Assembly: GCA_964510585.1 (NCBI GenBank)
Contig: CAZECW010000139.1
Span: forward strand, 3,333-35,332
From: an uncultured archaeon
GTDB taxonomy: Archaea; Asgardarchaeota; Jordiarchaeia; Jordiarchaeales; Jordiarchaeaceae
DNA length: 32,000 nucleotides
Direction of reading: 5' to 3'
The notes beneath the pieces are model-generated. The model was not told where the DNA came from. It made no database searches and saw nothing but the letters and a program-made list of their open reading frames with translations. A program made the translations under genes and the position numbers. Below are positions 1-22,352 of this stretch, in pieces (position 1 is the stretch's first letter; each line of letters begins with the position of its first letter).

Positions 1-418
1 CCGGATTATCCTCGTAGTCGTTTCTAATCATCCATTTTATGGCATCACTCATAGTTCTTACGTGGGTAATTATGCCTGTAGATATTGCTATGGTGTCACC
101 CTCAGGACTATAAAGGGTAAAGCACAGTTCTCCTAACTCTTGGACAATGGGGGAGGCAGATATATTCATAGATGTTTCCCGAGCACTAACTAGGGAGCCT
201 CTAATGAGCGCAAATATCCGCTCGTAAACAAGTGGGTTCTGCTCTTTATATTCTAATTTTTCTAGTCCATAGTATCTCCCCGTTTTCCGGAAGAGTTCCT
301 CGGATTCCTTCAACATTTCTTTTAGGGTTTTACCGTTCCATCCAATTTTTCTGGTTCTCGAGCCTTCTACTCCCTCAATCTCCACCAATTGTGGTTCTCT
401 AACAAAACTTGGCACCAT
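1..418 (-). CDS. acxB: Acetone carboxylase alpha subunit (hydantoinase B/oxoprolinase family), 5' part only; runs off the window start
   Basis: Not in the ORF track; translated by hand from ATG at 418: MVPSFVREPQ...GKTLKEMLKESEELFRKTGRYYGLEKLEYKEQNPLVYERIF...ARETSMNISASPIVQELGELCFTLYSPEGDTIAISTGIITHV...WMIRNDYEDNPG. This closely follows the AcxB N-terminus as I recall it (ARETAKKIAASPIVEQEGELCFTLY...STGIIIHV). The start lies 3 nt after the acxA stop. Confidence 0.9.
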   Translation of the reverse strand, partial: MVPSFVREPQLVEIEGVEGSRTRKIGWNGKTLKEMLKESEELFRKTGRYYGLEKLEYKEQNPLVYERIFALIRGSLVSARETSMNISASPIVQELGELCFTLYSPEGDTIAISTGIITHVRTMSDAIKWMIRNDYEDNP

Positions 419-421
419 TCC

Positions 422-4706: not shown

Positions 4707-5353
4707 TTGAGTGAAGTCTTGAATAAAATTGCCAAGTCTATCGAAGAGTTGGATGGAAAAGAAGCCGAGAAATTGGTGAGGAAGGCTCTGGACGAGGGCG
4801 TTGACCCGGTTAAGATTTTGGAGGATGGAATTATAGCCGGAGTCAGAGCCATTGGAGAAAAGTTTGAAAAAAGGAGTACTTTTTAGCCGAACTTTACGAA
4901 GGCGGTGAAATAGCGGAGAAACTGGTGGAAATTGTGGGACCTAGGATACCCAAGGAGGCAGGTGGGGCACGCAAGAGAGTGGTTATTGGCACAGTGCACG
5001 GAGACCTACATGATATAGGTAAGAATCTTGTAGCTATGCAGCTTACCATGGCGGGCTTTGAAGTTAGAGATCTAGGCATAGATGTTCCCGCAATGAGATT
5101 CATCGAGGAGGCGGAGAACTTCAAAGCAGATATTATAGCTATGTCATCTCTCTTGATGGCCACAATGATGAATATGGCAGAAGTTGTGAACCTTCTAAAA
5201 GAGCTTGGCTTGAGAGACAAATACAAAGTACTGGTGGGCGGTGGACCCATAAATCCCGCTTTAGCTCAAATGTTTGGAGCAGACGGATACGCTGAGAACG
5301 CTGTGGAAGCGGTAAAGGTCGCCAAAAAGTTGGTGGGCTTAGGAGGTGCTTAA
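4707..5353 (+). pseudogene. Methyltransferase cognate corrinoid protein (MtmC/MtbC-like), interrupted by a 1-nt frameshift in an A6 run at 4867-4872
   Basis: TTG 4707 (RBS AGAGGTGG) reads MSEVLNKIAKSIEELDGKEAEKLVRKALDEGVDPVKILEDGIIAGVRAIGEKFEK (B12 cap domain) and then stops at TAG 4884-4886. The -1 frame continues KEYFLAELYEGGEIAEKLVEIVGP...GTVHGDLHDIGKNLV (DxHxxG)...SSLL...VGGG. One extra A gives a normal 215-aa protein. This could be a sequencing error rather than a true pseudogene. Confidence 0.85.
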
Positions 5354-5356
5354 AAA

Positions 5357-6727
5357 ATGGTTAGAATAAAAGACATACAGGAAAGAGCTCTAACAGGACC
5401 AGTTATGAAGGAGAGAGAATATGATAAAATGCTTTCCAAAAGGGTTCGCGAATTAGTAAAAGACTACGACATAAAATTTGACATGAACCAGATTATTCCA
5501 GATGACAGTGTGGCTGACGATGTTTTCAAAGCAGGATTCGACCTCCTAATAGACGTAGGCATCTACCATCTGGACACTAACAGGAATATAAAATTCACAG
5601 AGAACGAAATAAAAGAGATGATTAAAAGCCGTCCCAGTGAGGTAAAATTCGGAACCGGCAAAGACCAAATAACAATCAAGAATAGAAAACCCGAGGAAAA
5701 GACGAAACCAGTGATAACCACTGGAGGAGGCATTCTCAGCGAAGACATGTTCCTCCCGATAGTAAAATCCTGCGCGCAAGAACCTACATGTCAGGGAATT
5801 AACGGCTTCAGCTTAATTAGCGCATGGGGCCTAGATAACAAAACGGGAACTCCGGGGGAAATTATGTGTGCCATAGCTGAGGGATTATGGAACAGGGAAG
5901 CTGTAAAAACCGTAGGAAAACCAGGTCTTTATATAGGCTTAGCAGGGGCTAGCGCACTATCACCCGCAGGAGCCATAGCAGCCTTCCACCCTGACGGGTA
6001 CACCAAAGAAAACGCGCAGATACCCATACACCTCTTCAACGAACTCAAACTAACTTGGAGCAGATTCATACTAGCCACATATGCTCGACTAAACGGTATA
6101 GTGCCCTGGACTTCTTACGGTGCGGCCATAGGACTCCTCTTCCGAAATTCTGAGGAGGCATCTGTAGGAGCCATCGCCGCTCTGCTAGCGGAACTAGCCT
6201 ATGGGCAGGGGTCCCTCTGTATGGGCGGCGGCATGGGATCAGATGGCATGGTAATGAGAAGAGAGTCCCTAGCCTCGGGTGCTACTTGCACGTTAGCTTT
6301 GACTAATAATCTTCATGTCCCTGTGGGAGGGGTGGGCGGCGGTGGCGGTTACGCAGGACCTTGCACCGAGATGCGTGTTTACGAAATCGCAATAATAAAT
6401 CTGATGAGTGTAGCATCAGGAGCCGGCTGGCTCTGGTACAGTGGAACTCTAAGAACATTGATTAACTACTGCACTGGTATGGAGGGTAGAATAATGGGTG
6501 AAACAGCCCGCGCCATAGCTGGAATGAAAAGAGCCGACGCCAACGAATTAATAAATAAACTCTTACCCAAAATAGAAGACAAGGAAAACCCGGAAAAAGC
6601 ACCTATAGGTAAGAGCTTCATGGAATGCTATGATATCAAAACCTTAACTCCATCAAAAGAATACACAGACCTCTACGCAAGGGTAAAAAAGGAACTCATA
6701 GATTACGGCATAGAGTACGAGTACTAA
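5357..6727 (+). CDS. mtmB: Monomethylamine methyltransferase MtmB-family protein without pyrrolysine; substrate unknown
   Basis: 456 aa, uninterrupted. FNELK, AGPCTEM, TGMEGRIMGETARAIAG and APIGKSFMECYDIKTLTPSKEY match MtmB segments. There is no in-frame TAG at the Pyl site (GKPGLYIGLAG versus GRPGMGV-O-GP). It lies 3 nt after the corrinoid gene. The symbol denotes family only. Confidence 0.85.
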   Translation: MVRIKDIQERALTGPVMKEREYDKMLSKRVRELVKDYDIKFDMNQIIPDDSVADDVFKAGFDLLIDVGIYHLDTNRNIKFTENEIKEMIKSRPSEVKFGTGKDQITIKNRKPEEKTKPVITTGGGILSEDMFLPIVKSCAQEPTCQGINGFSLISAWGLDNKTGTPGEIMCAIAEGLWNREAVKTVGKPGLYIGLAGASALSPAGAIAAFHPDGYTKENAQIPIHLFNELKLTWSRFILATYARLNGIVPWTSYGAAIGLLFRNSEEASVGAIAALLAELAYGQGSLCMGGGMGSDGMVMRRESLASGATCTLALTNNLHVPVGGVGGGGGYAGPCTEMRVYEIAIINLMSVASGAGWLWYSGTLRTLINYCTGMEGRIMGETARAIAGMKRADANELINKLLPKIEDKENPEKAPIGKSFMECYDIKTLTPSKEYTDLYARVKKELIDYGIEYEY

Positions 6728-7177: not shown

Positions 7178-9175
7178 TTGGAGGACTCGAAAATGTTGTT
7201 GTTTGACCCCATCAAGATTGGAAGCATGGAGATAAGAAATAGAATATTTTTACCAGCAATGCATTTGGGCTACTGTGTGAATAACTTTGTGGATGATAGG
7301 ATTGTTAATTTCTATGAGGCCCGTGCTAAGGGTGGTGCAGGCTTGATTATGGTTGGCGGCTGCGCCACTGAGCCTCTGGGAACCGGGTTGCCCAACATGA
7401 TGAGTTTAAGTGATGACAAATATATTCCGGGTATGAGGAGATTGGCTGAAGCTATAAAGAGGCATGGATCTAAAGCTGCTGTTCAACTTTTACATGTGGG
7501 TCCACAGACTTGGACTTTTATTCTTGGCACTCAGCCTGTTTCTGCCTCAGCCATAAAGTGTAAGCTGACTGGTGAAATGCCCCGGGAGATGACTATTCAG
7601 GAAATTGAGCAGAGTGTTGAGAATTTTGCTTTAGCGGCAAAGAGGGCTAAGAGTGCTGGATTTGATGCTGTTGAAATCATTGGGGGAGTGGGCTATTTGG
7701 TGGCTCGCTTCTTATCGCCAAGAACCAATGTGCGAAAGGATCGGTATGGGGGAAGCGTTCAGGGAAGAGTCAGGTTTGCAGTAGAGATTATTGAACGTAT
7801 TAAGGAGAAGTTGGGCAGAGACTTTCCCGTGATTTTTAAGCTTTCTGGCGACGAGTTTATGGAGGGTGGAAACACCATTGAAGAAACTAAGGTTATCGCA
7901 AAGGAACTTGAGAAGGCTGGTGCCGACTGTTTTAATGTGGCTGTGGCTTGGCATGAATCCCCTGTCCCTCAAATCACCATGAATGTTCCAAGGGGCGCCT
8001 TTGCCTATCTCGCCGAGAAGGTTCGCGAGGTGGTAAGCGTCCCTGTTATTGCAGGAAACAGGATTAACGACCCCCTTGTTGCTGAGAAGATTTTGAGGGA
8101 GGGCAAGGCAGACATCATCTCTCTAGGTAGAGCGCTCATCGCGGATCCCGAATTTCCAATAAAGGCTAAGGAGGGAAGATTTGCGGAGATCAGGAAATGC
8201 TTGGCGTGTAACCAGGGATGCTTTGATCATGTATTCTCAGCTCAACCAGTGGAGTGCCTAGTCAACCCTGATGTTTCAAGGGAAGCGGAGTACCAAATTA
8301 AACCTGCAGCAAAAAGAAAGAAAGTTTTGATTGCTGGAGGCGGTCCTGCAGGTATGGAGACTGCAAGAGTTGCTAAACTTAGGGGACATGATGTAACCCT
8401 CTATGAGAAGAGCGACAGGCTTGGAGGACAGCTGAGCTGGGCTGCGGTTCCTAAGGAAAGAAGGGAATTGGGAAACCTTGTAGATTACCTAGCGTACCAG
8501 ATGCAGTTACTAAATGTTAATGTAGTTTTGGGGAAGGAGGTTACCCCAGAAGTTGTTAAACAGTTGAACCCGGATGTACTGGTTGTAGCCACGGGAGTAA
8601 ACTGGATTGTACCGGATATACCGGGCGTTGATAGGCCCAATGTGGTAATGGCTCTAGACGTATTGGCTGATAGGGTGTCCGTTGGCAAAAAAGTGGTAAT
8701 TATTGGAGGTGGTGGCGTGGGCTGCGAAACCGGGCTTTACCTTGCGGAGAAGGGTTCCATAGATGCAGAAACCATGCTCTTCCTTGTTAAATGGGGAGCT
8801 ATGGATCTTGAGAGCGCCTACAAGCTGACTAAGAGCAATAAGGAAATTGTGATAGTGGAAATGCTGGACAAAATGGGACAGGATATTGGGGGTAGTACTC
8901 GCTGGACAATACTGAAAAGCCTTTCCCAAAGTGGAGTGAAAATGCTAACAAACTCCAAGGTAAAAGAAATAACCGAGAAGGGTGTAAAGCTGGATAATGG
9001 GGATGTCTTGGAAGCCGACACCGTTGTTATAGCAGTTGGATCAAAGCAGAACAATGAACTCTTCGAAAAAATGAGGGGCAAAGTCCCAGAAATCTATGCG
9101 GTGGGAGACTGCGTAACTCCCAGAAAAGCCATGGACGCAATGCACGAAGCGGCAGCAGTAGCCAGAAAAATATAA
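7178..9175 (+). CDS. fadH: NADH:flavin oxidoreductase, 2,4-dienoyl-CoA reductase (FadH) type: OYE barrel + [4Fe-4S] + FAD/NAD(P) domain
   Basis: GYLVARFLSPRTNVRKDRYGGS carries the FadH Tyr. WHESPVPQITMNVPRGAF matches FadH WHEARIPTI...VPRGAF. CLACNQGC...C is the cluster motif; GGGPAG and GGGGVG are dinucleotide motifs. The start may be ATG 7193. Confidence 0.82.
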   Translation: MEDSKMLLFDPIKIGSMEIRNRIFLPAMHLGYCVNNFVDDRIVNFYEARAKGGAGLIMVGGCATEPLGTGLPNMMSLSDDKYIPGMRRLAEAIKRHGSKAAVQLLHVGPQTWTFILGTQPVSASAIKCKLTGEMPREMTIQEIEQSVENFALAAKRAKSAGFDAVEIIGGVGYLVARFLSPRTNVRKDRYGGSVQGRVRFAVEIIERIKEKLGRDFPVIFKLSGDEFMEGGNTIEETKVIAKELEKAGADCFNVAVAWHESPVPQITMNVPRGAFAYLAEKVREVVSVPVIAGNRINDPLVAEKILREGKADIISLGRALIADPEFPIKAKEGRFAEIRKCLACNQGCFDHVFSAQPVECLVNPDVSREAEYQIKPAAKRKKVLIAGGGPAGMETARVAKLRGHDVTLYEKSDRLGGQLSWAAVPKERRELGNLVDYLAYQMQLLNVNVVLGKEVTPEVVKQLNPDVLVVATGVNWIVPDIPGVDRPNVVMALDVLADRVSVGKKVVIIGGGGVGCETGLYLAEKGSIDAETMLFLVKWGAMDLESAYKLTKSNKEIVIVEMLDKMGQDIGGSTRWTILKSLSQSGVKMLTNSKVKEITEKGVKLDNGDVLEADTVVIAVGSKQNNELFEKMRGKVPEIYAVGDCVTPRKAMDAMHEAAAVARKI

Positions 9176-9477: not shown

Positions 9478-9501
9478 AGTTAATTTCGGAGCGTGAAATA
9501 T

Positions 9502-10452
9502 GTGTCTGTCTTAACTGCTTGGAGAGAAAAATGTATCATAACCTGTGCCCTTACGGGATCCGCTACTTTTCCCTCCCAGACACCCTACCTACCCATAACA
9601 CCGGACCAGATATCTGACGAGGCAAAAAAGGCCTGCGACGCAGGCGCAGCAGTAGTCCACGTCCACGTGAGAGACCCCAAAACCGGCATGCCCACAGCCG
9701 ACCTAGGCGTGTGGAGAGAAACCCTAACAAAAATAAAGTCAAAAACAGACGTAATAGTCTGCTGCACAACAGGAGGGGGAGCCGGAATGACCCCCGAACA
9801 AAGAATAGCGGTGGTTCCAGAATTCAAGCCAGAAATGTGCTCCTTCAACGTGGAATCAATGAACTTCGCAGTATTCCCCATAGCGGAAAGAATTAAGGAG
9901 TGGAAATATCCCTGGGAAAAACCAGTAGTGGAAATGAGTAAGGGACTGATTTTCCAGAACAGCTTCAAAGACCTCGAAGTATTCTCCAAAACAATGTATG
10001 AAAACAACGTTAAACCCGAACTTGAGATTTATAGCACGAGTGGCATCTGGAATGCGGGAGCCATGCTCCGCTTTGGATGGCTTAAATTCCCCCTGCACAT
10101 GCAATTCGTCCTAGGGGTGCTCGGGGGCACAGGAAACACACCATGGGAACTAATACACTTCTATGACGAAGCCGCCCGACTCTTCGGCACGCAAAACTTC
10201 ACCTGGTCAGTGATCGGAATCGGGTACCCAAGAGAGTTCCACTTGGGAGCCATGGCGGCAATAATGGGAGGACATATAAGAGTTGGGCTAGAGGACAACA
10301 TTTACATAGCCCATAGAGAGTTGGCCAAGAGCAATGCAGAACTAGTCGCCAAGATGGTTAGGATAGTCAATGAACTGGGAAGAGATGTGGCCTCACCTGA
10401 CGAAGCAAGGAAAATGCTGGGACTAAAAGGACTGGACAAGGTCAACTACTAA
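9502..10452 (+). CDS. Beta-keto acid cleavage enzyme (BKACE/DUF849, 3-keto-5-aminohexanoate cleavage family), paralogue 1
   Basis: IITCALTG, Zn-binding HVH, TTGG and HIRVGLEDN (Glu ligand/Asp). Start GTG 9502 chosen because it aligns with the paralogue's ATG; the track starts at 9493. Confidence 0.92.
   Translation: MSVLTAWREKCIITCALTGSATFPSQTPYLPITPDQISDEAKKACDAGAAVVHVHVRDPKTGMPTADLGVWRETLTKIKSKTDVIVCCTTGGGAGMTPEQRIAVVPEFKPEMCSFNVESMNFAVFPIAERIKEWKYPWEKPVVEMSKGLIFQNSFKDLEVFSKTMYENNVKPELEIYSTSGIWNAGAMLRFGWLKFPLHMQFVLGVLGGTGNTPWELIHFYDEAARLFGTQNFTWSVIGIGYPREFHLGAMAAIMGGHIRVGLEDNIYIAHRELAKSNAELVAKMVRIVNELGRDVASPDEARKMLGLKGLDKVNY
9564..9770 (+). repeat. 207-bp near-identical tract shared with 10935-11141
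   Basis: Codon-by-codon comparison of the two BKACE genes shows a single mismatch (9678 C versus 11049 T) in 207 nt. Confidence 0.95.
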
Positions 10453-10488
10453 AAAAACAGCCGCCTTTCTTCTTTTTTGCTGTTTTTT
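10452..10488 (+). terminator. Hairpin/oligo-T terminator after BKACE paralogue 1
   Basis: AAAAAACAGC (10452-10461) and GCTGTTTTTT (10479-10488) form a perfect 10-bp inverted repeat around a pyrimidine-rich loop, immediately at the stop codon. Confidence 0.6.
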
Positions 10489-10872
10489 ATGAAAACTGTC
10501 AGTATTTAGAACAACAGTTGAAAGTCTTTTTGGAGGCGGAGGCTCTACAAACATGTCGCAATAAAAGCAAAACCCATGGTGTTCTTACCAGTTTTCCTAT
10601 TGAAGGGATTAGTCTGAAGCCCAATTAATTCCTATAAGAGTTCTCTGATGCAACCCCTAATTTTCCATACAAGCGTCTTATGAAACCATCACTCTTGCCC
10701 TGTTGATAGATTTTACAATTCGCGTAGAACAAGGGGGAAGAGATTTTCGGGTAATGCGGTGAATGATTACTTTGAGGAGCCAGCAAAAGTTCGATGCAAG
10801 GTACCAATAAATTAATATTTGTCATATTCTTCTAAAAATATGGGTTGGAAGAATTTTTGGAGGTGTGAAGAA

Positions 10873-11841
10873 ATGTCATTTTTAACTGCTTGGAGAGAAA
10901 AATGTATCATAACCTGTGCCCTAACTGGGTCAGTTACTTTTCCCTCCCAGACACCCTACCTACCCATAACACCGGACCAGATATCTGACGAGGCAAAAAA
11001 GGCCTGCGACGCAGGCGCAGCAGTAGTCCACGTCCACGTGAGAGACCCTAAAACCGGCATGCCCACAGCCGACCTAGGCGTGTGGAGAGAAACCCTAACA
11101 AAAATAAAGTCAAAAACAGACGTAATAGTCTGCTGCACAACTGGGGGAGGAGCAGGAATGACAGCCCAGCAGAGAATAGCGGTGGTTCCAGAATTCAAGC
11201 CAGAAATGTGCTCCTTCAACGTAGAATCAATGAACTTTTCAGTGTTCCCACTCGCAGAGAGAATAAAGGAGTGGAAAACTGACTGGGAAAAGCCCCTAGT
11301 AGAGTGGAGTAAGGGAATGATCTTCCAGAACTCATTTGCAGACCTTGAAGTGTTTGCCAAAACTATGTATGAAAACAATGTTAAACCGGAACTTGAGATT
11401 TACAGCAGCAGTGGCGTCTGGAACGCGGGTGCTATGCTCCGCTTTGGATGGCTTAAATTCCCCCTACACATACAATTCGTCCTAGGAGTATTGGGAGGAA
11501 CGGGCAACACACCCTTTGAATTGATGCACCTTTACAACGAGGCTAGCCGACTCTTCGGCACACAAAACTTCACTTGGTCAGTAATCGGAATAGGATACCC
11601 GCAAGAATTCCACCTAGGAGCGATGGCGGCAATAATGGGAGGCCACATAAGAGTGGGCATGGAAGACAACATTTATGTGGGTTACGACCCCGTGAAGAAG
11701 GAGCGTATACTTGCAAAGAGCAACGCTGAACTGGTTGCAAAGATGGTTAAGATAGTTAACGAATTGGGAAGAGATGTAGCTTCACCTGACGAAGCAAGGA
11801 AAATGTTGGGACTAAAGGGATTAGACAAGGTCAACTACTAA
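10873..11841 (+). CDS. Beta-keto acid cleavage enzyme (BKACE/DUF849), paralogue 2
   Basis: Same motifs (HVH, HIRVGMEDN) and a GGAGGTG RBS before ATG 10873 (track starts at 10819). About 24 substitutions plus a 6-aa insertion relative to paralogue 1, by hand count. Confidence 0.92.
   Translation: MSFLTAWREKCIITCALTGSVTFPSQTPYLPITPDQISDEAKKACDAGAAVVHVHVRDPKTGMPTADLGVWRETLTKIKSKTDVIVCCTTGGGAGMTAQQRIAVVPEFKPEMCSFNVESMNFSVFPLAERIKEWKTDWEKPLVEWSKGMIFQNSFADLEVFAKTMYENNVKPELEIYSSSGVWNAGAMLRFGWLKFPLHIQFVLGVLGGTGNTPFELMHLYNEASRLFGTQNFTWSVIGIGYPQEFHLGAMAAIMGGHIRVGMEDNIYVGYDPVKKERILAKSNAELVAKMVKIVNELGRDVASPDEARKMLGLKGLDKVNY
10935..11141 (+). repeat. Second copy of the 207-bp tract
   Basis: Offset of 1371 nt from 9564-9770; one mismatch. 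Confidence 0.95.
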
Positions 11842-11911: not shown

Positions 11912-12697
11912 TTATAGTTCCCTTAGGGTTCCTTTTAGGTCTATTCGGGTTCTTATTACTTGGAGTTCTTCTTTTGTGGGTGGCTCTGTTTCTGGAACGT
12001 CATCTGGAATTATGAGTTGGAATCCAGTGTTGTTTTTAACCTCTTCGATCGATACTCCTGGGTGTACTGATTTTAGGCGCATTCTTTTGGTCTTTTCTTC
12101 GAAGTCCATTATACAGAGAGGTGTTAATACATATTTGGGGCCTCCTCCAGGTAGGCCTAGTTTTTTTCTGGAGTTTCCCCCGTCTCCCCAGCCTACGGCG
12201 GTTATGTATTCGCATTTGTCCACGAAAATCATTGGGTGGTGCCTCTCAGAGTAGATATAGTAGCGGCCCACGTAGGTTGTTATTGTTGATTGTCCAATGG
12301 CGCCTGGTCCTCGGAACATCAATTTTGGGTACTGTCCGCCAATGCCGAGCAGGTTTATGTTTCCATATTTGTCTATTTGGAGGCCTCCGAAGAAGCTGAC
12401 ATCATACCTTCTTATAGTATCCCAGAGGTGCTCATATTCTGGTACTTCTTCGCAGTATTTGAATCCAGAGTAGTCTGTGACGAATTCAAAACTTTCTATT
12501 TGTTTCACGTCTGAGAAGTTGGCGCGGTAAAACTGTAGCCAGCGCATGTTTGGTGCGTGTGTTAGGTGTGCGAGGAGTACGCCTGCTCTACACGCGGGTA
12601 GGTTGGCTCCTATTAGTACTGTTTCGCCGTCTTTGATTTCTCGGGAGATGAAAGCAGCTAGGAGCTCTCTTATTGAGTAATCTTTGTTTCTGCTCAA
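11912..12697 (-). CDS. Class I CoA-transferase beta subunit homologue (GctB/CatJ/IpdB family)
   Basis: FFGGLQIDKYGNIN, RGPGAIG, SVHPGVSIEEVKNNTGF and TEPPTKEEL motifs; AGGTGA RBS; downstream of the alpha subunit. Confidence 0.85.
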   Translation of the reverse strand: MSRNKDYSIRELLAAFISREIKDGETVLIGANLPACRAGVLLAHLTHAPNMRWLQFYRANFSDVKQIESFEFVTDYSGFKYCEEVPEYEHLWDTIRRYDVSFFGGLQIDKYGNINLLGIGGQYPKLMFRGPGAIGQSTITTYVGRYYIYSERHHPMIFVDKCEYITAVGWGDGGNSRKKLGLPGGGPKYVLTPLCIMDFEEKTKRMRLKSVHPGVSIEEVKNNTGFQLIIPDDVPETEPPTKEELQVIRTRIDLKGTLREL

Positions 12698-12710
12698 TTT
12701 TTTTCACCTT

Positions 12711-13601
12711 CTACCATCTGTATAGAGAGAGGAGTTTCTTCATACCGATTACTTCAAGATACTCTTCGTGTGAATTTGGTTCAAGGATGTATTTTTTGAG
12801 GTACTGGTTGAAGGGCTCAGGGTTTCCCTTTGTGTAAGCCTTGGCCGCCTCCACGTACTCTTTGAGGTGTTCCCTGTCTAAATCGTAGAATCCATCGCTT
12901 GAGAAGGGGTGGGAACCATATGGGGTGGGCACCACCGCATCAACCCCGTAAATCTTTGTTAGGTGTGGGTTTCTCTTTATGTCTTCGTTAGAAACCACTT
13001 TTTCTACTTGAAAGACGCATTTTTTGGAGGCTCTCGCCATTAGAATGTCTGCGTAGGTGTTTCCCACGTACTGTATGTTGCCATATGGGTCGCTCCAGGA
13101 TGCGTGAAGTATGGCTACGTCGAGTTCCAGTGCGGGGACAGCTAGCAATGTTTGTCCCTTTATGGGGTCTTGGAAGTATTTTAGATCGGGGTTAATGTCG
13201 GGCAGGCAGGTGCCAACGCCGCCTAGCCAGGGTAGGAAAGGTAGCCCCTCGGCCGCGGCTCTTAGTGCGGTGCATAGGATTGCTTCGTCGCACTCCCACA
13301 TTTGAATGGTGCCGTCCACTACTGCTTTTCGGAAGAATGGACCTATGGGTGCGAGTGATTCTCCTCCCACGTAAGCAGTGGCCACCTTCTTTGCGACACC
13401 CGCTCCGATCATCAAGTCAATTTCTAGTCCCGCTGCGGGTGAGCCTACTACTGTCAGGTTTTTTACACCGTTCTTAATGATTTGGCGAATTATGGCCATG
13501 GGGTGATTTGCAGTTAGAAGGCCCCCGATGCCTACGGTCATACCGTCCTTTATCATTGAGGCTGCCTCTCTTACACTCATAATGACTTCTTTTCTGGTCA
13601 T
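12711..13601 (-). CDS. Class I CoA-transferase alpha subunit homologue (GctA/CatI/IpdA family)
   Basis: IKDGMTVGIGG...HPMAIIRQI, ECDEAIL...RAAAEGLPFLP, LDVAILHA..SDPYGN and VDAVV..PYGSHP motifs. Confidence 0.87.
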   Translation of the reverse strand: MTRKEVIMSVREAASMIKDGMTVGIGGLLTANHPMAIIRQIIKNGVKNLTVVGSPAAGLEIDLMIGAGVAKKVATAYVGGESLAPIGPFFRKAVVDGTIQMWECDEAILCTALRAAAEGLPFLPWLGGVGTCLPDINPDLKYFQDPIKGQTLLAVPALELDVAILHASWSDPYGNIQYVGNTYADILMARASKKCVFQVEKVVSNEDIKRNPHLTKIYGVDAVVPTPYGSHPFSSDGFYDLDREHLKEYVEAAKAYTKGNPEPFNQYLKKYILEPNSHEEYLEVIGMKKLLSLYRW

Positions 13602-13891: not shown

Positions 13892-15025
13892 TTATGTTTT
13901 TTGTTGTAGGGCGAGGACCGCCGCTTCTATTATTGTTTTTGTGAATTCTTCAAGTGTGAATCCTGTGTAGTCTATTTTGTTACTTTTGAAGGCTTCAACT
14001 ATGGCGTTGCTTATGGCCTTCTCGTTTTCCGCTGATATTCCTTTGAGGGCGTTAACCACTTTTTCCAGACCGTCTGCTGGGGAGAGTAGAAAGTCGCCAG
14101 TTATGAGAATGTCTCTAATCTTTTTGGTCTTGTCTATGGCTACGCTGGCGTTGATAGTTCTTTCTGACTTGTATCTGAAGGTTGCAGCCCTCCAATCGTT
14201 GGGCAGTTTACTGTACCATCTACTCTTGGAAACGCTGGTAACTACATCTTCTGCGGTGAGTTTTTTGAAGCCCTCAGTAATCATTTCTTTTTCTTCCTCG
14301 GTGAAGTTTCCGGGTGCAAATTCCATTCCCAGTTTCTGTTTCACAATGGTTAGCAAGAGATTCTTTACTTCTTCTTCAGTAGGTGTTCTGGGTGCATCCT
14401 TTTCCATGCTACCCGCATACATGGTTACGTCGCGCAACAATTTGTCCTTCAGCTTCTCCTCTGGATAAACATAATAATCTGTGAAGAACTTAACGCTGGG
14501 GGTAAGCCGGTTGATGAAGGTTCCCACCACAACCCCTTTTCCCCAAATTAGGGAAGTGCTTCCACCCAACTTTTTGTCATCTTTTCGAATGTCGCCCGGA
14601 TGACTATAGTAGGCGTCTAAAACACCCACCCTCATGAAGAGTTCTAGAACCACTTCGCCGGCCCAAATCCTCTCAGCCTCCTCCAAATTTGGAAACACGT
14701 CCGTGGTTGTCACCAGTACCGCCGCGATTTGGCCCTTTGGGGCATAGTAGGTGCCAGCTCCACTCTCCCTCCGCCCCACCAGCACACCGTCCCTTTTCAC
14801 AGCCTTGTACCTAATCTCATCCAAGTCCTCATACTTACCCAGGCTCAGTGATTCTTTACCATGAGAAACAAATATAAGCGTGTCTGGAATCTTACCCGCA
14901 TCACGCATCTTGGACAAAACATCAAAAGCCACAAGCAACTCTACACCAGACATATCAGAAACAATTAGTCTCCCCTTAGACTGAGTTCTAAACTTCTTCT
15001 CCCTTCTTTCCAACTGTTCCAACAC
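13892..15025 (-). CDS. lplA: Lipoate-protein ligase A family protein with C-terminal domain
   Basis: VGRRESGAGTYY (RRxSGGG-like), PGDI...DKKLGG (catalytic Lys) and C-terminal ILITGDFLLSP. A GGAGGTG RBS at 15038-15032 favours a start at 15025 or 15022; the track starts at 15040. Confidence 0.78.
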   Translation of the reverse strand: MLEQLERREKKFRTQSKGRLIVSDMSGVELLVAFDVLSKMRDAGKIPDTLIFVSHGKESLSLGKYEDLDEIRYKAVKRDGVLVGRRESGAGTYYAPKGQIAAVLVTTTDVFPNLEEAERIWAGEVVLELFMRVGVLDAYYSHPGDIRKDDKKLGGSTSLIWGKGVVVGTFINRLTPSVKFFTDYYVYPEEKLKDKLLRDVTMYAGSMEKDAPRTPTEEEVKNLLLTIVKQKLGMEFAPGNFTEEEKEMITEGFKKLTAEDVVTSVSKSRWYSKLPNDWRAATFRYKSERTINASVAIDKTKKIRDILITGDFLLSPADGLEKVVNALKGISAENEKAISNAIVEAFKSNKIDYTGFTLEEFTKTIIEAAVLALQQKT

Positions 15026-15587
15026 AAAAAACACCTCCAACTCAAAGAATAAATCTATGTATTATAATCTCCAACCATCTTGGGGCTGTTAATCGTTGAA
15101 ATTAGAGAAAACCTGTTTTTCTCCACTAAGGAATACATTTTCAGTGATAATCAACATATTTATAATTTTTGGAGCAAAGAGGGACAAAATGCAGCTTCTC
15201 CACATTTGTACCGAGCAAAACTAATCCGTTGCGTATAACCGGCCAAAATGTGGGTAGTAGGAGGAAGCGAAACTTACTGACAGGCCTCATATAAATAGTT
15301 TTTTTGTCGATAGTTTTATAAAGAAAACAAATCCAGAGAAACGAAATCCAGAGCATCGTAAATATGAAGTGAAGCGTTACCCCTTTAAATGTGAGGCGTT
15401 AGTGGCTACAGTGATTCCTCCACCAAAAAATCACACGCGAAAAATGGTGACCAAAATTCGTTAAGACGCTGCGAACAGTCTTTTGATTAAACCTTAGAGT
15501 GGAGGAAAACAAAGGCGGAAGACCCAAATAAGCATTCAAACAAAGAATGGATATTTCGTACTATTCTGGATTTAAACCAACTTGGGT

Positions 15588-15667: not shown

Positions 15668-16810
15668 ATGGATAAAGAAGTAGCCATTGTGGGAGTAGCA
15701 CAAACCAAGTATGAGGAAGAAAAGGCGGATTTACCCTACTCTGAACTAGTTTTCGAAGTCGTCAAAAAACTCCACGACGAGCTGGGAATAACTAAAGACG
15801 ACGTGGGAAGCATAATAACTAGCTCCAACGATTTCAACGACGGAAGAACAATAGCCAGCATGGCCATTCAGGATGCTTTAGGAGCCGTGGGAAAATCGGA
15901 GTCCCGAGTATCGGGAGACGGAGCATTCGCCTATGTCTACGGAGTAATGAGAATACTAGAAGGAACATACGATACAGTGATGGTGGTTTCACACTGCAAG
16001 TGTTCCGAGTCAAACATTTACCTTGTAAACAATTCTATTTTTGAGCCCTACTACCAGAGATGGCTGGGACTAGACCAGGTCTCTTCGGCGGGATTAATGG
16101 CGAACATGTACTCACACAAGTATGGAATCACCCAAGAACAAGCGGCAAAAGTGGCAGTAAAAAACCGCAAAAACGCTCTAAACAATCCCTACGCACATCT
16201 ACAAAAAGCAGTTACAGTCGACGAAGTCCTAAATTCCAAAATGATGGCCTACCCCCTCAAAGAACTAGATCTACCGCCACTCTCGGACGGAGCTGTAGCA
16301 ATGCTCCTAACAAACAAAGAGAAAGCCAAAAAATATACAGACACACCAGTGTGGTTTAAGGGCCACGGCAATTGCACCGACGCCTACTACCTTGGACACC
16401 GCAACATGACCGACCTCATAGGACTAGAACTAGCAGCAAGAGAAGCCTACAAAATGGCGGGAATAAAAAACCCCATGAAGGAAATCGACGTAGCAGAAAT
16501 CTATGAAGCGTTCACCTACCACGAACTAATGAATTATGAAGCCCTAGGACTATGCAAAAAAGGCGAGGGAGGAAAACTCATCGACAGCGGACAAACAGAA
16601 ATGAACGGAACCCTCCCAGTAAACCCCTCAGGAGGCGTACTCTCAAGCAACCCCTCCATGGCCAACGGACTAGTTCGTGTAGCAGAAATCGCACTGCAAC
16701 TAATGGGCAAAGCCGAAAAAAGACAGGTGAAAGACGCCAAAATTGGACTAGCCACAGGAATGAATGGAATCTGCTCCCAAGGAAACTGCGTAATCATATT
16801 AGAAGCATGA
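15668..16810 (+). CDS. ltp4: Thiolase-fold protein lacking the catalytic Cys, Ltp4-like
   Basis: LHDELGITKDDVG, SSNDFNDGR, DVAEIYEAFTY, NPSGGVLSSNPSMANGLVRV and SQGNCVIILE parallel actinobacterial Ltp4 as I recall it. There is no CxS nucleophile (ESRVSGDGA) and no GHP His. Confidence 0.72.
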   Translation: MDKEVAIVGVAQTKYEEEKADLPYSELVFEVVKKLHDELGITKDDVGSIITSSNDFNDGRTIASMAIQDALGAVGKSESRVSGDGAFAYVYGVMRILEGTYDTVMVVSHCKCSESNIYLVNNSIFEPYYQRWLGLDQVSSAGLMANMYSHKYGITQEQAAKVAVKNRKNALNNPYAHLQKAVTVDEVLNSKMMAYPLKELDLPPLSDGAVAMLLTNKEKAKKYTDTPVWFKGHGNCTDAYYLGHRNMTDLIGLELAAREAYKMAGIKNPMKEIDVAEIYEAFTYHELMNYEALGLCKKGEGGKLIDSGQTEMNGTLPVNPSGGVLSSNPSMANGLVRVAEIALQLMGKAEKRQVKDAKIGLATGMNGICSQGNCVIILEA

Positions 16811-16829
16811 AAATGAGGAGATGAAAAAT

Positions 16830-17990
16830 ATGGTAAAACAAAAAGTAGCAATTGTGGCAACCGGCCAAACAAAACACAGAAGCCGAAGAAGAGACGTCAA
16901 CATATCCGAAATGATTTATGAAGCAGTAAAAATGGCCCTAGATGAAGCCCAACTCACACCCAAAGACATAGACGCCGTCGTTATTGGAAACATGGACCAC
17001 TTCGAAGGAATAAACTTCTCCGAAATGTGGACCGGAATAGAATCCGCACCTGGATACCTCAAACCCGTAGTAAAAGTAGCCACAGGGGGAACCACCGGAA
17101 CCTCCCTAGCAGCATACGGATACTACGCAGTAGCCTCTGGAATGTATGACAAAGTACTAGTAGTGGGATGGGAAAAAATAAACGAAGGAGGAGCCACAAC
17201 CGGAATAGTAACAGCCTTCGACGCCAGATGGGAAAGACCCGCCCTAGCCGGGGCACTAGGCCCCCTCGCTCTGATGGCTAGTATGTATATGTGGGAATTT
17301 GGAGTAACACCAGAACAAGCCGCAAAAGTAACAGTCAAAAACAGAAGAAACGCAGCAAATAATCCCTTCGCACACCTGCAACAACCCAACATGACAGTAG
17401 AAGAAGTGATGAACTCACCAGTAATATCGTGGCCCCTAAGACTCCATGATTGTTGCCCGCAGAGTGAGGGTGCTTGTGCGATTGTTTATGCGGGTGAGGG
17501 TGTGGCTAGGAAGATTAGTGATAATTTGGCGTGGGTTAAGGGTGTGGACACGGGGCACTATTATACTTATGGTGGCGATGATGTGATGCATAAGTATCCT
17601 GCGGCCAAGATTGCTTCTACCAGGCTTTACAAGAAGGTGGGTATTAGGAATCCGTTGAAGGATTTGGATGTGGCTGAGGTTTATGAGCCGAGTAGTTGGG
17701 CGGAGCTTATGTGGACTGAGGCTTTGGGTTTCTGTGAGTATGGTCAGGGTGGTAAGTTGTTGGATGAGGGTGTTACTGAGATGGGTGGTGAGTTGCCAGT
17801 GAATCCTTCGGGCGGTGTTATTGCGACGAATCCTATTGGTGCTACGGCGCTTATTCGTGTGGCTGAGGCTGCGATTCAGGTTAGGGGCCTGGGTGGTAAG
17901 CGTCAGGTTCCTGATGTGGAGTTGGCGTTGGCTCATGGTTTCGGTGGTAGTGTTTGGGCGGATCTTATGATTTTGGGTAAGGAGCCTTGA
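16830..17990 (+). CDS. ltp3: Thiolase-fold protein lacking the catalytic Cys, Ltp3-like
   Basis: TGQTK, DHFEGI, AHLQQPNMTVEEVMNS, AEVYEPSSW and NPIGATALIRVAEAAIQV parallel Ltp3. The nucleophile position reads ATGGTTG. A GAGGAG RBS favours ATG 16830; the track starts at 16821. Confidence 0.75.
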   Translation: MVKQKVAIVATGQTKHRSRRRDVNISEMIYEAVKMALDEAQLTPKDIDAVVIGNMDHFEGINFSEMWTGIESAPGYLKPVVKVATGGTTGTSLAAYGYYAVASGMYDKVLVVGWEKINEGGATTGIVTAFDARWERPALAGALGPLALMASMYMWEFGVTPEQAAKVTVKNRRNAANNPFAHLQQPNMTVEEVMNSPVISWPLRLHDCCPQSEGACAIVYAGEGVARKISDNLAWVKGVDTGHYYTYGGDDVMHKYPAAKIASTRLYKKVGIRNPLKDLDVAEVYEPSSWAELMWTEALGFCEYGQGGKLLDEGVTEMGGELPVNPSGGVIATNPIGATALIRVAEAAIQVRGLGGKRQVPDVELALAHGFGGSVWADLMILGKEP

Positions 17991-18004: not shown

Positions 18005-18490
18005 ATGAGTGAGAAGAAGGAAGAGCCTTTTACTATAAATTGGCTTACTGATTTGCCTTATCGTTATGCTTTGGGACCCGTTGCATCGAAGTTCTTTAGG
18101 GTGCTTAAGGAGTCTGGTAAGTTACTGGCGATTAAGTGTAGGAAGTGTGGGAAGGTGTTGTTCCCTCCGAGGTCTGTGTGTGCGGACTGTTTGGTGGAGA
18201 TGACTGTGGATGATATGGTTGAATTGAGTGGTGAGGGTTCGCTGGATGGTTTTACTGTGGTTAATTATCCTTTTGTGGATCCTAATACTGGTGAGACGAG
18301 GCCTTTTCCGTATGGTTATGGTGCGATTAAGTTGAAGGGTACAGATACTTGGATGCTGCATTTTGTCGATGAGACGGATCCTGGGAAGATTAAGCCGGGT
18401 ATGCTGGTGAAGGCGGTGATTAAGCCTAAGAATGAGCGGAAAGGTACTTTAGAGGATATACCCTACTTTAGAGCGGTTGAGAAGAAGTGA
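18005..18490 (+). CDS. DUF35 family Zn-ribbon/OB-fold protein
   Basis: CRKC...FPPRSVCADC, GxLxxFTVV and PFPYGYGAIKL motifs; GAGGTG RBS. Confidence 0.9.
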   Translation: MSEKKEEPFTINWLTDLPYRYALGPVASKFFRVLKESGKLLAIKCRKCGKVLFPPRSVCADCLVEMTVDDMVELSGEGSLDGFTVVNYPFVDPNTGETRPFPYGYGAIKLKGTDTWMLHFVDETDPGKIKPGMLVKAVIKPKNERKGTLEDIPYFRAVEKK

Positions 18491-18515
18491 GATTTCAATC
18501 TGTGGAGGTTTTGTT

Positions 18516-18956
18516 GTGAGTGAGGATAAGTATTTTCATGGTAGGATTAGGGTGCCTTATAGGCATGTTGCTGGTGCTTATGCTGGTCGGTTTATTCAGG
18601 AGATTGGCAATAATAAGAGGATTATGGGTGTGAAGTGTTCCAGATGTGGTAAAGTGTATGTTCCTCCTAGGATGGTTTGTTTTGCGTGTTTTGAGAAAAT
18701 GAAGGAATGGGTCGAAGTTGGCAAGCAAGGTACGGTTAAGGGATTTACGGTGGTTAACTATTCGACGCCAGTTATGCCGTTGAAGCCCCCCTTTGCTTAT
18801 GGGATTATTGAGTTAGATGGTTCAAATACTGGTTTTGTGCACATCATTAAGGAGGGTGACCCCAAGAAGCTGAAGGTTGGCATGCGGGTTGAGGCTGTTT
18901 TCAAGAGCAACCCAGAGGGCAACATTTTGGACATTGAATACTTCAAACCAGTATAG
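18516..18956 (+). CDS. DUF35 family Zn-ribbon/OB-fold protein, second copy
   Basis: CSRC..VYVPPRMVCFAC, GTVKGFTVV, PFAYGIIELDG and GMRVEAVF motifs; GGAGG RBS before GTG 18516 (track starts at 18477). Confidence 0.9.
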   Translation: MSEDKYFHGRIRVPYRHVAGAYAGRFIQEIGNNKRIMGVKCSRCGKVYVPPRMVCFACFEKMKEWVEVGKQGTVKGFTVVNYSTPVMPLKPPFAYGIIELDGSNTGFVHIIKEGDPKKLKVGMRVEAVFKSNPEGNILDIEYFKPV

Positions 18957-19970: not shown

Positions 19971-20984
19971 TTGGTTTCTAAAGGAGAAGAGATGCTAAGA
20001 GAAGATATTGAGAGGGTTCAGGAGCAGAGACTGCAGAGAGAAGTGAAGTACGCTTATAATTATTCTGAGTTTTACAGGAAAAAATTCGCTGATGCTGGGT
20101 TGAAACCTGATGACGTAAAGAGTTTGGATGATTTGTCGAGGATTCCTGTTACCTCCAAGGAGGAGGTTCTATCCAAGTTTAGTGACAGTGATCCTTTTAG
20201 TGGTCGGCTTTGTGTTCCCGTAGATAAGTTGTGGTATATAATTTTACCTCATGAAGCCACGTTGTCTGGCAGACCACTCTACACTGCATATACTTATAAT
20301 GATCGCCGGGTTCTTCTGGAACAGTTGACGCGGTTCTTCCGAATGCTTGGTGTTGGAGCTAAGGATTTAGTTATGACTTCTGGTCAATCTTGGGAGCTTA
20401 CCCCAAGAGTTCTGGAGAGCGCATTCACTATTCAAGAAACGGTTCAGGATAGGTTAGGGTTCATCAACATGCCTTTGGAGGCTTCCCTAGTTTTTATTGA
20501 TATGCCTAGAGCCATTTATCTCGGGGAGCAACTTAAACCGAGAATTTTTTTCACCCTAGTATCATACTTTGATCAGGTCACTCAGGGGATAAAGAGTCAA
20601 AAAAAGGTGCCTAAGGATGTTTTTCAGCCGGAAATAATTGTTCTAAGAGAGTTGATGGATGATATGCGGCTTACAGATGAAAAGCAAAAGGAGTACAAAA
20701 GTGAGTGGGGTAGTGAGTTTTATAGAATGTTGGACGTACAGGATACTGCTTTTCTTGCCATGGAGTGCCCTGAGCACAATGGACTACACGCATGGGAGGA
20801 CATGTTCATCATAGAGGCATTGAGTAATGGAGAACCAGTGGCTGAGGGTAAGAGAGGAAAGTTGACAATAACTAATCTCTGGTCAGAGGCTACACCAGCG
20901 ATAAGGTGGCAAACAGATTACGAAGTGACTTTGGACAAAAAGCGCTGCAAGTGTGGAGGAAACCATCTGAGAATTAAGCTATGA
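19971..20984 (+). CDS. Degenerate phenylacetate-CoA ligase (PaaK)/F390-synthetase family protein lacking the P-loop and C-terminal domain
   Basis: PaaK-like N-terminus (SEFYRKKF...DLSRIPVTSKE) and ECPEHNGLH.WED.F, GKLTITNL, CKCG motifs. The P-loop reads PHEATLSGRP, and the ORF ends right after CKCG. The start may be ATG 19992. Confidence 0.75.
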   Translation: MVSKGEEMLREDIERVQEQRLQREVKYAYNYSEFYRKKFADAGLKPDDVKSLDDLSRIPVTSKEEVLSKFSDSDPFSGRLCVPVDKLWYIILPHEATLSGRPLYTAYTYNDRRVLLEQLTRFFRMLGVGAKDLVMTSGQSWELTPRVLESAFTIQETVQDRLGFINMPLEASLVFIDMPRAIYLGEQLKPRIFFTLVSYFDQVTQGIKSQKKVPKDVFQPEIIVLRELMDDMRLTDEKQKEYKSEWGSEFYRMLDVQDTAFLAMECPEHNGLHAWEDMFIIEALSNGEPVAEGKRGKLTITNLWSEATPAIRWQTDYEVTLDKKRCKCGGNHLRIKL

Positions 20985-21002
20985 AAAAAGGGTTTAGAGT
21001 GG

Positions 21003-22352
21003 ATGTTTATGGTAGATTGGAGAAAATACTGGAACGAGCCAATTGAGACTATATCCAGAAAGGATCTAATGGAACTGCAATTTAAAAGGTTAAAGAAGCA
21101 GTTAAACAACATTTATCATAACTCCTCATATTATAGGGGAGTGATGAGAGAAAGTGGGATTTCGCCAGATGATATAAAGTCATTAGGAGATTTTACTAAA
21201 TTTCCAGTTACCTACAAGGATTCAGTGAGAGAATTGATAAATGCGGGTGACCCCTTCGGCGGCCTATTATGCGTTCCATTTGAAGACATAAAATCTATTT
21301 ATTCCACAACGGGCACTACAGGAATACCTTCAATACATGCTCAGACCAAAGAGGATCAAGAGTACAGCGCAGAGCAAACTGCTAGGCTAACTTGGATGCA
21401 GGGATTTAGGCCAGGAGATGTCCTTTTTTGGCCCCCCGTGAGATGGAACGGGTTCATCTTCGGCGTCACCCCGGGACTAGAAAGAATAGGGGTAGTATCA
21501 ATCACAAATATTTTGTATCCTTTACCCAACTATGCAGACAAAATGGTCTACGCTCTTAAACACCTTCGCCCTGACGTAATGGCAGTACCAATAGTGATAT
21601 TTGACGGGTTTCTAGAATCCTGCAAAAGACTTGGGGAAAAACCCGCTGAAATATGTGAAAGCTTGAGAGCAATTTCAATTGGTTATGGAGATGTTTTAAC
21701 AAATAGCTATCGGCAAAAGTTAATAAAGGAGGCGAGGCTAGAGCCGGAGAAGATTTTTAGTGGCGGTGGGGCAGCGGATACCATGATTCATTTGGCGGAG
21801 TGTGAAGTACGTGAGGGCACTCATATTTGCGAGGATCTTTATTTGGCTGAGATTCTAGATCTGGATACCAAGGAGCCTGTGGGGGAAAATGAAAGGGGCG
21901 AATTGATTCTATCGAATCTTTATATGAGAGGCACCCCACTTATAAGGTGGGGTAGTGAGGATATTTCCACCTTCAGTAGGGAAACTTGTAAGTGTGGTAG
22001 GACTCATGGTAGAGCAACTTGGATTGGTCGAACAGGTTTCCAGCTTAATGTTATGGGTAAATGGATTCTTCCTTTGGATGTTGATGATCTGTTTATAGAT
22101 GTGCCGGAGGCTGCGGGTACTCCCTTTACACTTTTCAAGTATAAGAAGGGCGTGATGGAGAAGCTGAAGATGAAGATGGTTTACGATGGAAGCAAAGGTT
22201 TAACCAAAGAGGAGTTCAGAGCGAAGGTTTCTGGAATTATTAAGGAGAAACTGGGTGTTGAAACCGATATTGAAATAGTGGATTCCATAGACGATTTGCC
22301 CAAAATTGCCCACAAATATAAAAGAGTTGAAGATCTCACCAAAGAAAGTTAA
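21003..22352 (+). CDS. Phenylacetate-CoA ligase (PaaK)-family adenylate-forming CoA ligase
   Basis: YSTTGTTGIP P-loop, GELILSNL, TPLIRW, CKCGRTH...IGR and terminal KYKRVEDL (A10 Lys). Substrate not determinable. Confidence 0.87.
   Translation: MFMVDWRKYWNEPIETISRKDLMELQFKRLKKQLNNIYHNSSYYRGVMRESGISPDDIKSLGDFTKFPVTYKDSVRELINAGDPFGGLLCVPFEDIKSIYSTTGTTGIPSIHAQTKEDQEYSAEQTARLTWMQGFRPGDVLFWPPVRWNGFIFGVTPGLERIGVVSITNILYPLPNYADKMVYALKHLRPDVMAVPIVIFDGFLESCKRLGEKPAEICESLRAISIGYGDVLTNSYRQKLIKEARLEPEKIFSGGGAADTMIHLAECEVREGTHICEDLYLAEILDLDTKEPVGENERGELILSNLYMRGTPLIRWGSEDISTFSRETCKCGRTHGRATWIGRTGFQLNVMGKWILPLDVDDLFIDVPEAAGTPFTLFKYKKGVMEKLKMKMVYDGSKGLTKEEFRAKVSGIIKEKLGVETDIEIVDSIDDLPKIAHKYKRVEDLTKES

Follow-up and report, generated by a model that had tools for sequence, protein, structure and literature searches.

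The gene pair and its fold

The DNA described here is a 32,000-nucleotide stretch, referred to as the window, from an uncultured hot-spring archaeon of the Asgardarchaeota, class Jordiarchaeia (assembly GCA_964510585.1, contig CAZECW010000139.1, positions 3,333 to 35,332). It encodes two adjacent proteins, an alpha and a beta subunit, that form a two-subunit pair of the family I coenzyme A (CoA)-transferase fold, glutaconate (Gct) branch. Canonical family I enzymes carry a nucleophilic Glu in the beta part of the active site. The subject of this work is the absence of that residue from the archaeal pair and the chemistry that the pair may carry out instead. The two genes and the sites within them are as follows.

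12711..13601, minus strand: alpha subunit gene, 296 amino acids, GctA/IpdA-type CoA-transferase fold (intact open reading frame, Pfam, PDB sequence matches)
11912..12697, minus strand: beta subunit gene, 261 amino acids, GctB-type fold without the nucleophile Glu (intact open reading frame, Pfam, PDB sequence matches)
13284..13295, minus strand: alpha E103-C104-D105-E106 (ECDE), with E106 as the proposed general base (translation, alignment)
12518..12556, minus strand: beta A48-N60, APNMRWLQFYRAN, the site of the nucleophile Glu in canonical family I enzymes (translation, alignments)
12449..12496, minus strand: beta E68-E83, with E68, E71 (IESFEF) and E83 as candidate auxiliary acid/base residues (translation, conservation)

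The beta gene begins 13 bases downstream of the alpha gene on the same strand. The Pfam family CoA_trans (PF01144) matches both subunits, with E-values of 4.5e-31 for alpha and 9.5e-15 for beta, and both proteins score far under the cut-offs of the curated NCBIfam models for 3-oxoacid and acetate CoA-transferase subunits.

Three solved relatives frame the comparison. GctAB of Acidaminococcus fermentans (1POI) is a true CoA-transferase. IpdAB (Rv3551/Rv3552 of Mycobacterium tuberculosis and its RHA1 counterpart; PDB 6CO6, 6CO9, 6COJ and 6CON) is the COCHEA-CoA ring-C hydrolase of steroid catabolism. AibA/AibB, the 3-methylglutaconyl-CoA decarboxylase of Myxococcus xanthus (PDB 5MZW and variants), has the same fold without the nucleophile Glu and with a beta Glu near its former site. 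The alpha subunit matches GctA at 1.1e-40, IpdA at 6.3e-35 and AibA at 7.8e-23. The corresponding values for the beta subunit are 8.5e-34 for GctB, 1.6e-11 for IpdB and about 1e-9 for AibB. GctAB is thus the top sequence match of both subunits and shares their sizes and gene order. The AlphaFold model of the beta subunit has a predicted local distance difference test (pLDDT) score of 85 and query-normalised template modelling (TM) scores of 0.75-0.79 to GctB, AibB and IpdB. The best structural match is GctB (1POI_B, query-normalised TM 0.79), and the three came out nearly equal in the Foldseek search with this model, so the fold comparison does not discriminate among them.

Loss of the nucleophile in the beta subunit

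The original prediction gave the GctB nucleophile motif as APDCHIIVESG and held that the archaeal beta subunit has no Glu at this site. The motif is correct in alignment, the archaeal segments that the prediction quoted do occur in the translations, and none of the alignments tried places a Glu there. Which residue stands in for GctB Glu54 varies with the aligner: R58 in the pairwise phmmer alignment, and Q55 in both the family profile and MAFFT alignments. Alignments other than those giving Q55 put the counterpart among residues F56 to R58. Besides four canonical beta subunits of this archaeal genome, the MAFFT alignment took in three true IpdB sequences, and the IpdB Gly falls in one column with Q55 and the canonical Glu. 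In RHA1 IpdAB, the canonical beta Glu corresponds to Gly57-beta (PMC5380842). Because the MAFFT column reproduces this published equivalence, Q55 is the best equivalent of Glu54. The pair therefore differs from GctAB in having Q55 at the position of Glu54 and, in the alpha subunit, Glu106 where GctA has Gln.

At E<=1e-5, more than 1600 relatives of the beta subunit were found. Two are close, at 86-88% identity, and the next best stand at about 50-58% and come from many bacterial phyla. Contigs of Jordarchaeial genomes carry relatives at 95-97% identity. The family spans Rokubacteria, Acidobacteriota, Betaproteobacteria, Binatia, Chloroflexota, Actinomycetota and Jordarchaeia. Residue counts given out of 121 refer to the archaeal pair and the 120 best of the more than 1600 relatives. 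Position 55 of the beta subunit is Ser, Ala, Gly, Val or Gln in all 121 sequences and Glu in none, and position 58 is Glu in a single one. The loss of the beta Glu is a trait of the family and no chance feature of one gene. The pair lacks the nucleophilic beta Glu (GctB Glu54) on which, in transferases of the Gct branch, the acyl-glutamyl anhydride and then the CoA thioester are built.

Other beta carboxylates are candidates for a catalytic part. Residue E71 is Glu in just 75/121 relatives, which argues against it as a family-wide nucleophile, and E68 is Glu in 89/121. Residue E83 aligns with a Glu of true IpdB (VEGW). The invariant polar residues of the beta subunit are H44, D75, E83, Q107, D109, N113, N115, R129 and H153.

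Both genes are under strong purifying selection, with pN/pS ratios of 0.06-0.13 against five relatives, so the Glu-less protein is functional and not decaying. This bears on the possibility that the pair is an acyl-CoA thioester hydrolase or a catalytically dead CoA-ester-binding protein. Loss of the nucleophile is a classical mark of pseudoenzymes, and one solved structure, 9CQ2, a CtfAB variant with Asp in place of the nucleophile Glu, bears the title of a hydrolase. Selection on both genes, a set of polar residues that is invariant across phyla in both subunits, and the fixed position of the pair in a conserved gene cluster all speak against such a role. Thioester hydrolysis would also waste the energy of the CoA ester in an anaerobe. 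We consider this explanation very improbable.

The IpdA-type glutamate of the alpha subunit

The alpha subunit was predicted to carry a Glu matching the catalytic Glu of IpdA, in a segment given as EMDEGM. Alignment reproduces both the IpdA motif and the match. Residue E106 aligns with the sole residue that distinguishes PDB 6CO6 (Glu) from the IpdA variant 6COJ (Ala). Crowe et al. 2018 reportedly assign the residue altered in 6COJ as the catalytic base of IpdA. Among the 121 alpha subunits, E103 is Glu in 119, D105 is Asp in 109 and E106 is Glu in 118. The E106 column holds Gln in GctA, Gly in AibA, and Asn or His in the canonical paralogues of the same genome. Among the groups compared, an E-x-D-E-[G/A] motif is common to true IpdA and the family of the archaeal pair only.

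The archaeal genome offers an internal comparison, as it holds eight Gct-type pairs, four with the beta Glu and four without it. The four canonical beta subunits keep the Glu motif (for example, IIFEAGG), and their partner alpha subunits have Asn or His at the E106 position. Three of the four Glu-less beta subunits have a partner with Glu at this position. Within this one genome, a missing beta Glu is thus accompanied by an acquired alpha Glu. The other pairs are located as follows.

Glu-less pairs elsewhere in the genome: contigs C118, C211 and C101
Canonical pairs: contigs C193, C10, C129 and C40/C29

The Glu-less pair on C211 adjoins a short-chain dehydrogenase/reductase (SDR), a DUF35 protein and a methylmalonyl-CoA-mutase-like gene. 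The surroundings of the C118 pair include a crotonase, an AMP-ligase and a Ras-family small GTPase.

The alpha Glu also helps to weigh the other Glu-less members of the fold as models. One proposal is that the pair decarboxylates a glutaconyl-type (vinylogous beta-keto) CoA ester in the manner of AibAB, for example when methyl-branched isoprenoid acids are degraded. AibAB, whose structure is solved, shares the fold and likewise lacks the Glu; AibB Cys56 occupies the position of the lost Glu with Glu72 beside it (PMC7756340). Beta E71 pairs with AibB Glu72 in the pairwise alignment, but the profile alignment shifts E71 to AibB Ser71. The archaeal family has Ser, Ala or Gln where AibB has Cys, and AibA has Gly where both this family and IpdA have Glu. 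To judge from these positions, the pair has neither the Cys at the lost-Glu site nor the alpha subunit without an IpdA-type Glu that characterise AibAB, which is also the weakest sequence match of the three solved relatives. A decarboxylase of this type is quite unlikely.

A second proposal is an intramolecular CoA-transferase that moves CoA between the carboxyls of a dicarboxylate mono-CoA ester, with a carboxylate of the substrate as the nucleophile, as proposed for ThnP. ThnP acts in alicyclic CoA ester catabolism during anaerobic naphthalene degradation by culture N47; it is a family I enzyme in which the conserved Glu is replaced by Gly, and it performs intramolecular transfer only (PMC11659651). 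It offers a precedent for a Glu-less family I enzyme. Dicarboxylyl-CoA esters are the usual form of ring-opened catabolites, and acyl-CoA catabolic genes lie all around the archaeal pair. ThnP, however, belongs to the single-chain Cat1 subgroup and not to the two-subunit Gct branch (PMC11659651), and no counterpart of the alpha Glu has been described for it. The archaeal proteins form a Gct-type alpha/beta pair and do not share the single-chain, Cat1-subgroup architecture with Gly at the Glu position. Moreover, a substrate-assisted mechanism would leave the near-invariant IpdA-type alpha Glu unexplained. This proposal is improbable as well.

Relation to IpdAB

The archaeal pair resembles IpdAB in its two-subunit family I fold, the loss of the beta Glu, the alpha E-x-D-E-G motif and the beta Glu at E83. 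It differs from IpdB in having about 12 extra residues (F70-Y81) in the beta subunit. It also differs in its archaeal host and in the absence of a KstR2-type steroid gene set from the window, where no EchA20-type crotonase, acyl-CoA dehydrogenases or FadD3-type ligase were found.

True IpdA and IpdB for the comparison were taken from a Mycobacterium metagenome-assembled genome (589 and 477 bits against M. tuberculosis 6CON), with orthologues from Nocardioides and Actinomadura. A maximum-likelihood tree of alpha subunits unites the partners of Glu-less beta subunits in one clade (98/93) and, inside this clade, places true IpdA as sister to the family of the archaeal pair (98/89). The archaeal protein belongs to a small, deeply branching archaeal clade of this family. 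A Myxococcota candidate for true AibA in the tree was rejected as GctA-like. Two aspects of the trees qualify the sister relationship. In the alpha tree, IpdA forms a long branch and GctA and AibA themselves were left out. The beta tree gives no resolved link to IpdB, which forms a very long branch, and its four groups are unresolved at the base; this tree neither supports nor rejects a link between the family and IpdB.

Orthology to Rv3551/Rv3552 is rejected. The alpha subunit is 33% identical to true IpdA, the family forms a separate clade, and both kinds of protein coexist in three actinobacterial genomes. In each of these genomes, from Mycobacterium, Nocardioides and Actinomadura, one or two family members accompany true IpdAB. 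In both Nocardioides halotolerans (loci L087/L091) and Actinomadura sp. KC345 (loci L088/L090), two family alpha genes lie within about 6 kb and the true IpdA lies elsewhere.

The original prediction of an IpdAB-like enzyme thus holds in part. The loss of the beta Glu, the alpha Glu and the sisterhood in the alpha tree agree with it; orthology does not, given the alpha identity and a beta subunit that scores 47 bits against IpdB and 120 against GctB. The pair shares the IpdAB hallmarks of an absent beta Glu and a present alpha Glu, yet it is not IpdAB itself.

Gene neighbourhood

The genes around the pair are listed below in the order of the window.

2-2557, minus strand: hydantoinase B (partial) and hydantoinase A, of the acetone/acetophenone carboxylase or oxoprolinase type, at the window start
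4925-6727, plus strand: B12-binding protein, then a full-length MtmB-family methyltransferase (no in-frame stop)
7178..9175, plus strand: OYE/FadH/BaiCD-type flavin enoate or dienoyl-CoA reductase (Pfam Oxidored_FMN and Pyr_redox_2)
9493..11841 (9493-10452 and 10819-11841), plus strand: two tandem BKACE genes, convergent with the beta gene (Pfam BKACE, 4e-100 and 4e-98)
13892..15040, minus strand: divergent LplA-like gene, directly upstream of the alpha gene (Pfam LplA-B_cat, 1e-12)
15668..17990 and 18005..18956, plus strand: two SCP2-thiolase-fold genes, then two DUF35 (OB-fold) genes (Pfam, PDB sequence matches)
19971-22352, plus strand: 337-amino-acid protein without a Pfam match, then a 449-amino-acid protein with weak AMP-binding (PaaK-like) matches

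The cluster is conserved across Jordarchaeia/Freyarchaeota genomes. Four other archaeal contigs keep the order of PaaK-like ligase genes, a 180-amino-acid gene, two DUF35 genes, two SCP2-thiolase-fold genes, the LplA-like gene, alpha, beta, BKACE, the OYE-type reductase and the MtmB-like methyltransferase. The LplA-like gene stands directly upstream of the pair in all Jordarchaeial relatives.

The BKACE pair has its best NCBIfam match in the 3,5-dioxohexanoate:acetyl-CoA type of phloroglucinol breakdown, with 367 and 361 bits against a cut-off of 430. An Acidobacteriia contig encodes, beside a family member, a reductase that is 38% identical to the OYE-type reductase of the window. The label 'IpdC-like' was rejected for the latter, since IpdC belongs to the nitronate-monooxygenase-type flavoenzymes and not to the OYE group. 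As the MtmB-family gene has no in-frame stop, it is pyrrolysine-free.

Several features of the neighbours are recorded in their own right. By eye, both SCP2-thiolase-fold proteins are without a Cys at the thiolase nucleophile site, and the PDB relatives of the SCP2-thiolase-fold and DUF35 genes include SCP2-thiolases, BbsB, Ltp2 and PhlC. The 337- and 449-amino-acid proteins fall into one BLAST cluster, and relatives keep both. Matches to the LplA/LplB catalytic domain number 17 in the genome, most of them in open frames of 350-400 amino acids, a striking expansion for a 3.8-Mb archaeon.

Neighbours of the bacterial family members were counted in 69 loci, taking genes within 6 kb of the pair.

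SDR: 31 of 69 loci
AMP-ligase: 21
SCP2-thiolase: 21
FAD_binding_2 oxidoreductase: 18
BKACE: 18
Acyl-CoA dehydrogenase: 15
Short citrate-synthase-like protein: 15
DUF35: 13
OYE: 13

These bacterial loci are devoted to acyl-CoA catabolism, with no single pathway among them. BKACE was rejected as an orthologous partner across the family, since betaproteobacterial BKACE is only 23% identical to that of the window. An open reading frame of 342 amino acids without a Pfam match, present in 36 loci, was set aside as most likely an antisense artefact of high-GC genomes.

Predicted complex and proposed activity

Structure prediction of the alpha and beta subunits with CoA gave a complex score of 0.92, against 0.00 for the best control. 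The mark applied to this score is reached by 58/80 solved complexes and by 2/110 mismatched pairs. Agreement between runs covers at least 95% of contacts, with a partner pLDDT of 88 or higher. Like complexes are already solved, so passing this mark shows likeness and not binding. In the model, alpha residues 103-108 pack against beta residues 133-139, a glycine-rich loop that follows the invariant R129. Beta residues 56-57, beside the former nucleophile position, also lie at the alpha/beta interface. The prediction returned interface residues and no ligand contacts.

We propose that the pair would no longer transfer CoA by the glutamyl-anhydride ping-pong route. An acyl-CoA would bind at the alpha/beta interface, where alpha Glu106 could act as a general base for the addition of water. 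A beta-oxo or enoyl CoA ester would in this way be hydrated and/or cleaved at a C-C bond by a retro-Claisen or retro-aldol reaction, as in IpdAB. We judge the chances about even that the pair is a water-using enzyme of this kind, cleaving C-C bonds in or hydrating a CoA ester with E106 as the base. The fold, the missing beta Glu, the conserved alpha Glu, the sisterhood to IpdA in the alpha tree, purifying selection and conserved synteny are shown; that a CoA ester binds, that E106 activates water, that a C-C bond is cleaved and what class the substrate belongs to are inferred. The probable substrate is a cyclic or branched acyl-CoA on which the neighbouring OYE reductase, thiolase-fold and DUF35 proteins, BKACE and PaaK-like ligase would also act. 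It is not demonstrably a steroid ring intermediate.

Several observations weigh against a water-using enzyme. The whole sequences of the pair are nearer to the real transferase GctAB than to IpdAB; for alpha, GctA scores 143 bits and IpdA 124, and the wider gap for beta is given above. Beta E83, which is Glu in 120/121 relatives, and beta E71, which lies with residues 71-74 at the subunit interface of the model, are possible alternative catalytic carboxylates. Relative to the family consensus, four conserved beta positions are changed in the archaeal clade (R77S, T57Y, W81Y and F101S). Genes for a crotonase, an acyl-CoA dehydrogenase and a 3-hydroxyacyl-CoA dehydrogenase are missing from the window, and no complete pathway can be drawn from it. 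BKACE yields acetoacetate, which normally needs a true CoA-transferase, and a transferase role would therefore fit the neighbourhood. In the literature, no characterised family member or non-steroid 'IpdAB-like' enzyme was found; only steroid work and ThnP came up.

Some of these points would suit an intermolecular CoA-transferase with a relocated nucleophile, whether alpha E106 or beta E71 or E83, which could for example activate the acetoacetate from BKACE. Two conserved BKACE genes are adjacent to the pair, BKACE occurs in the family loci at the frequency listed above (18/69), and BKACE pathways are paired with acetoacetate CoA-transferases in lysine fermentation operons. The nearest whole-sequence match is a real transferase, and several carboxylates lie at the model interface. 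Against this, we know of no family I enzyme with a nucleophile in the alpha subunit, and E71 is poorly conserved. The link to BKACE in Betaproteobacteria is not orthologous, and the genome already has four canonical pairs with a beta Glu. The alpha Glu is shared with IpdAB, and CoA-transferase activity was absent from purified IpdAB (PMC5380842). A relocated nucleophile is unlikely.

The water-using enzyme can also be placed in a wider setting, which we offer tentatively. The large IpdAB-sister family might consist of CoA-ester C-C hydrolases for non-steroid substrates. The Asgard pair might then belong to a conserved, O2-free C-C-breaking set that dismantles cyclic or methyl-branched (isoprenoid-like) acids and that would comprise the pair, the thiolase-fold aldolase with DUF35, BKACE, the ketone carboxylase and the OYE reductase.

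Implications

Members of the family are usually annotated as 'glutaconate CoA-transferase subunit A/B' or 'CoA synthetase'. This labelling is very probably wrong for the family, which numbers more than 1600 proteins. As a result, metabolic reconstructions of soil bacteria and Asgard archaea assign CoA transfer where a C-C cleaving or hydrating step is more likely.

To our knowledge, IpdAB is so far the sole characterised hydrolase of the fold and is known from steroid catabolism only. By sequence comparison, the pair described here would represent an uncharacterised sister family of IpdAB, in this case in an Asgard archaeon. Several hosts of the family are in culture, among them Nocardioides halotolerans DSM 19273 and Actinomadura sp. 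KC345, which makes the question directly testable. If the proposed activity is correct, a non-steroid sister family would make an active site with an alpha Glu instead of a beta Glu a general catalytic solution, and it would provide a handle on undescribed routes of anaerobic breakdown.

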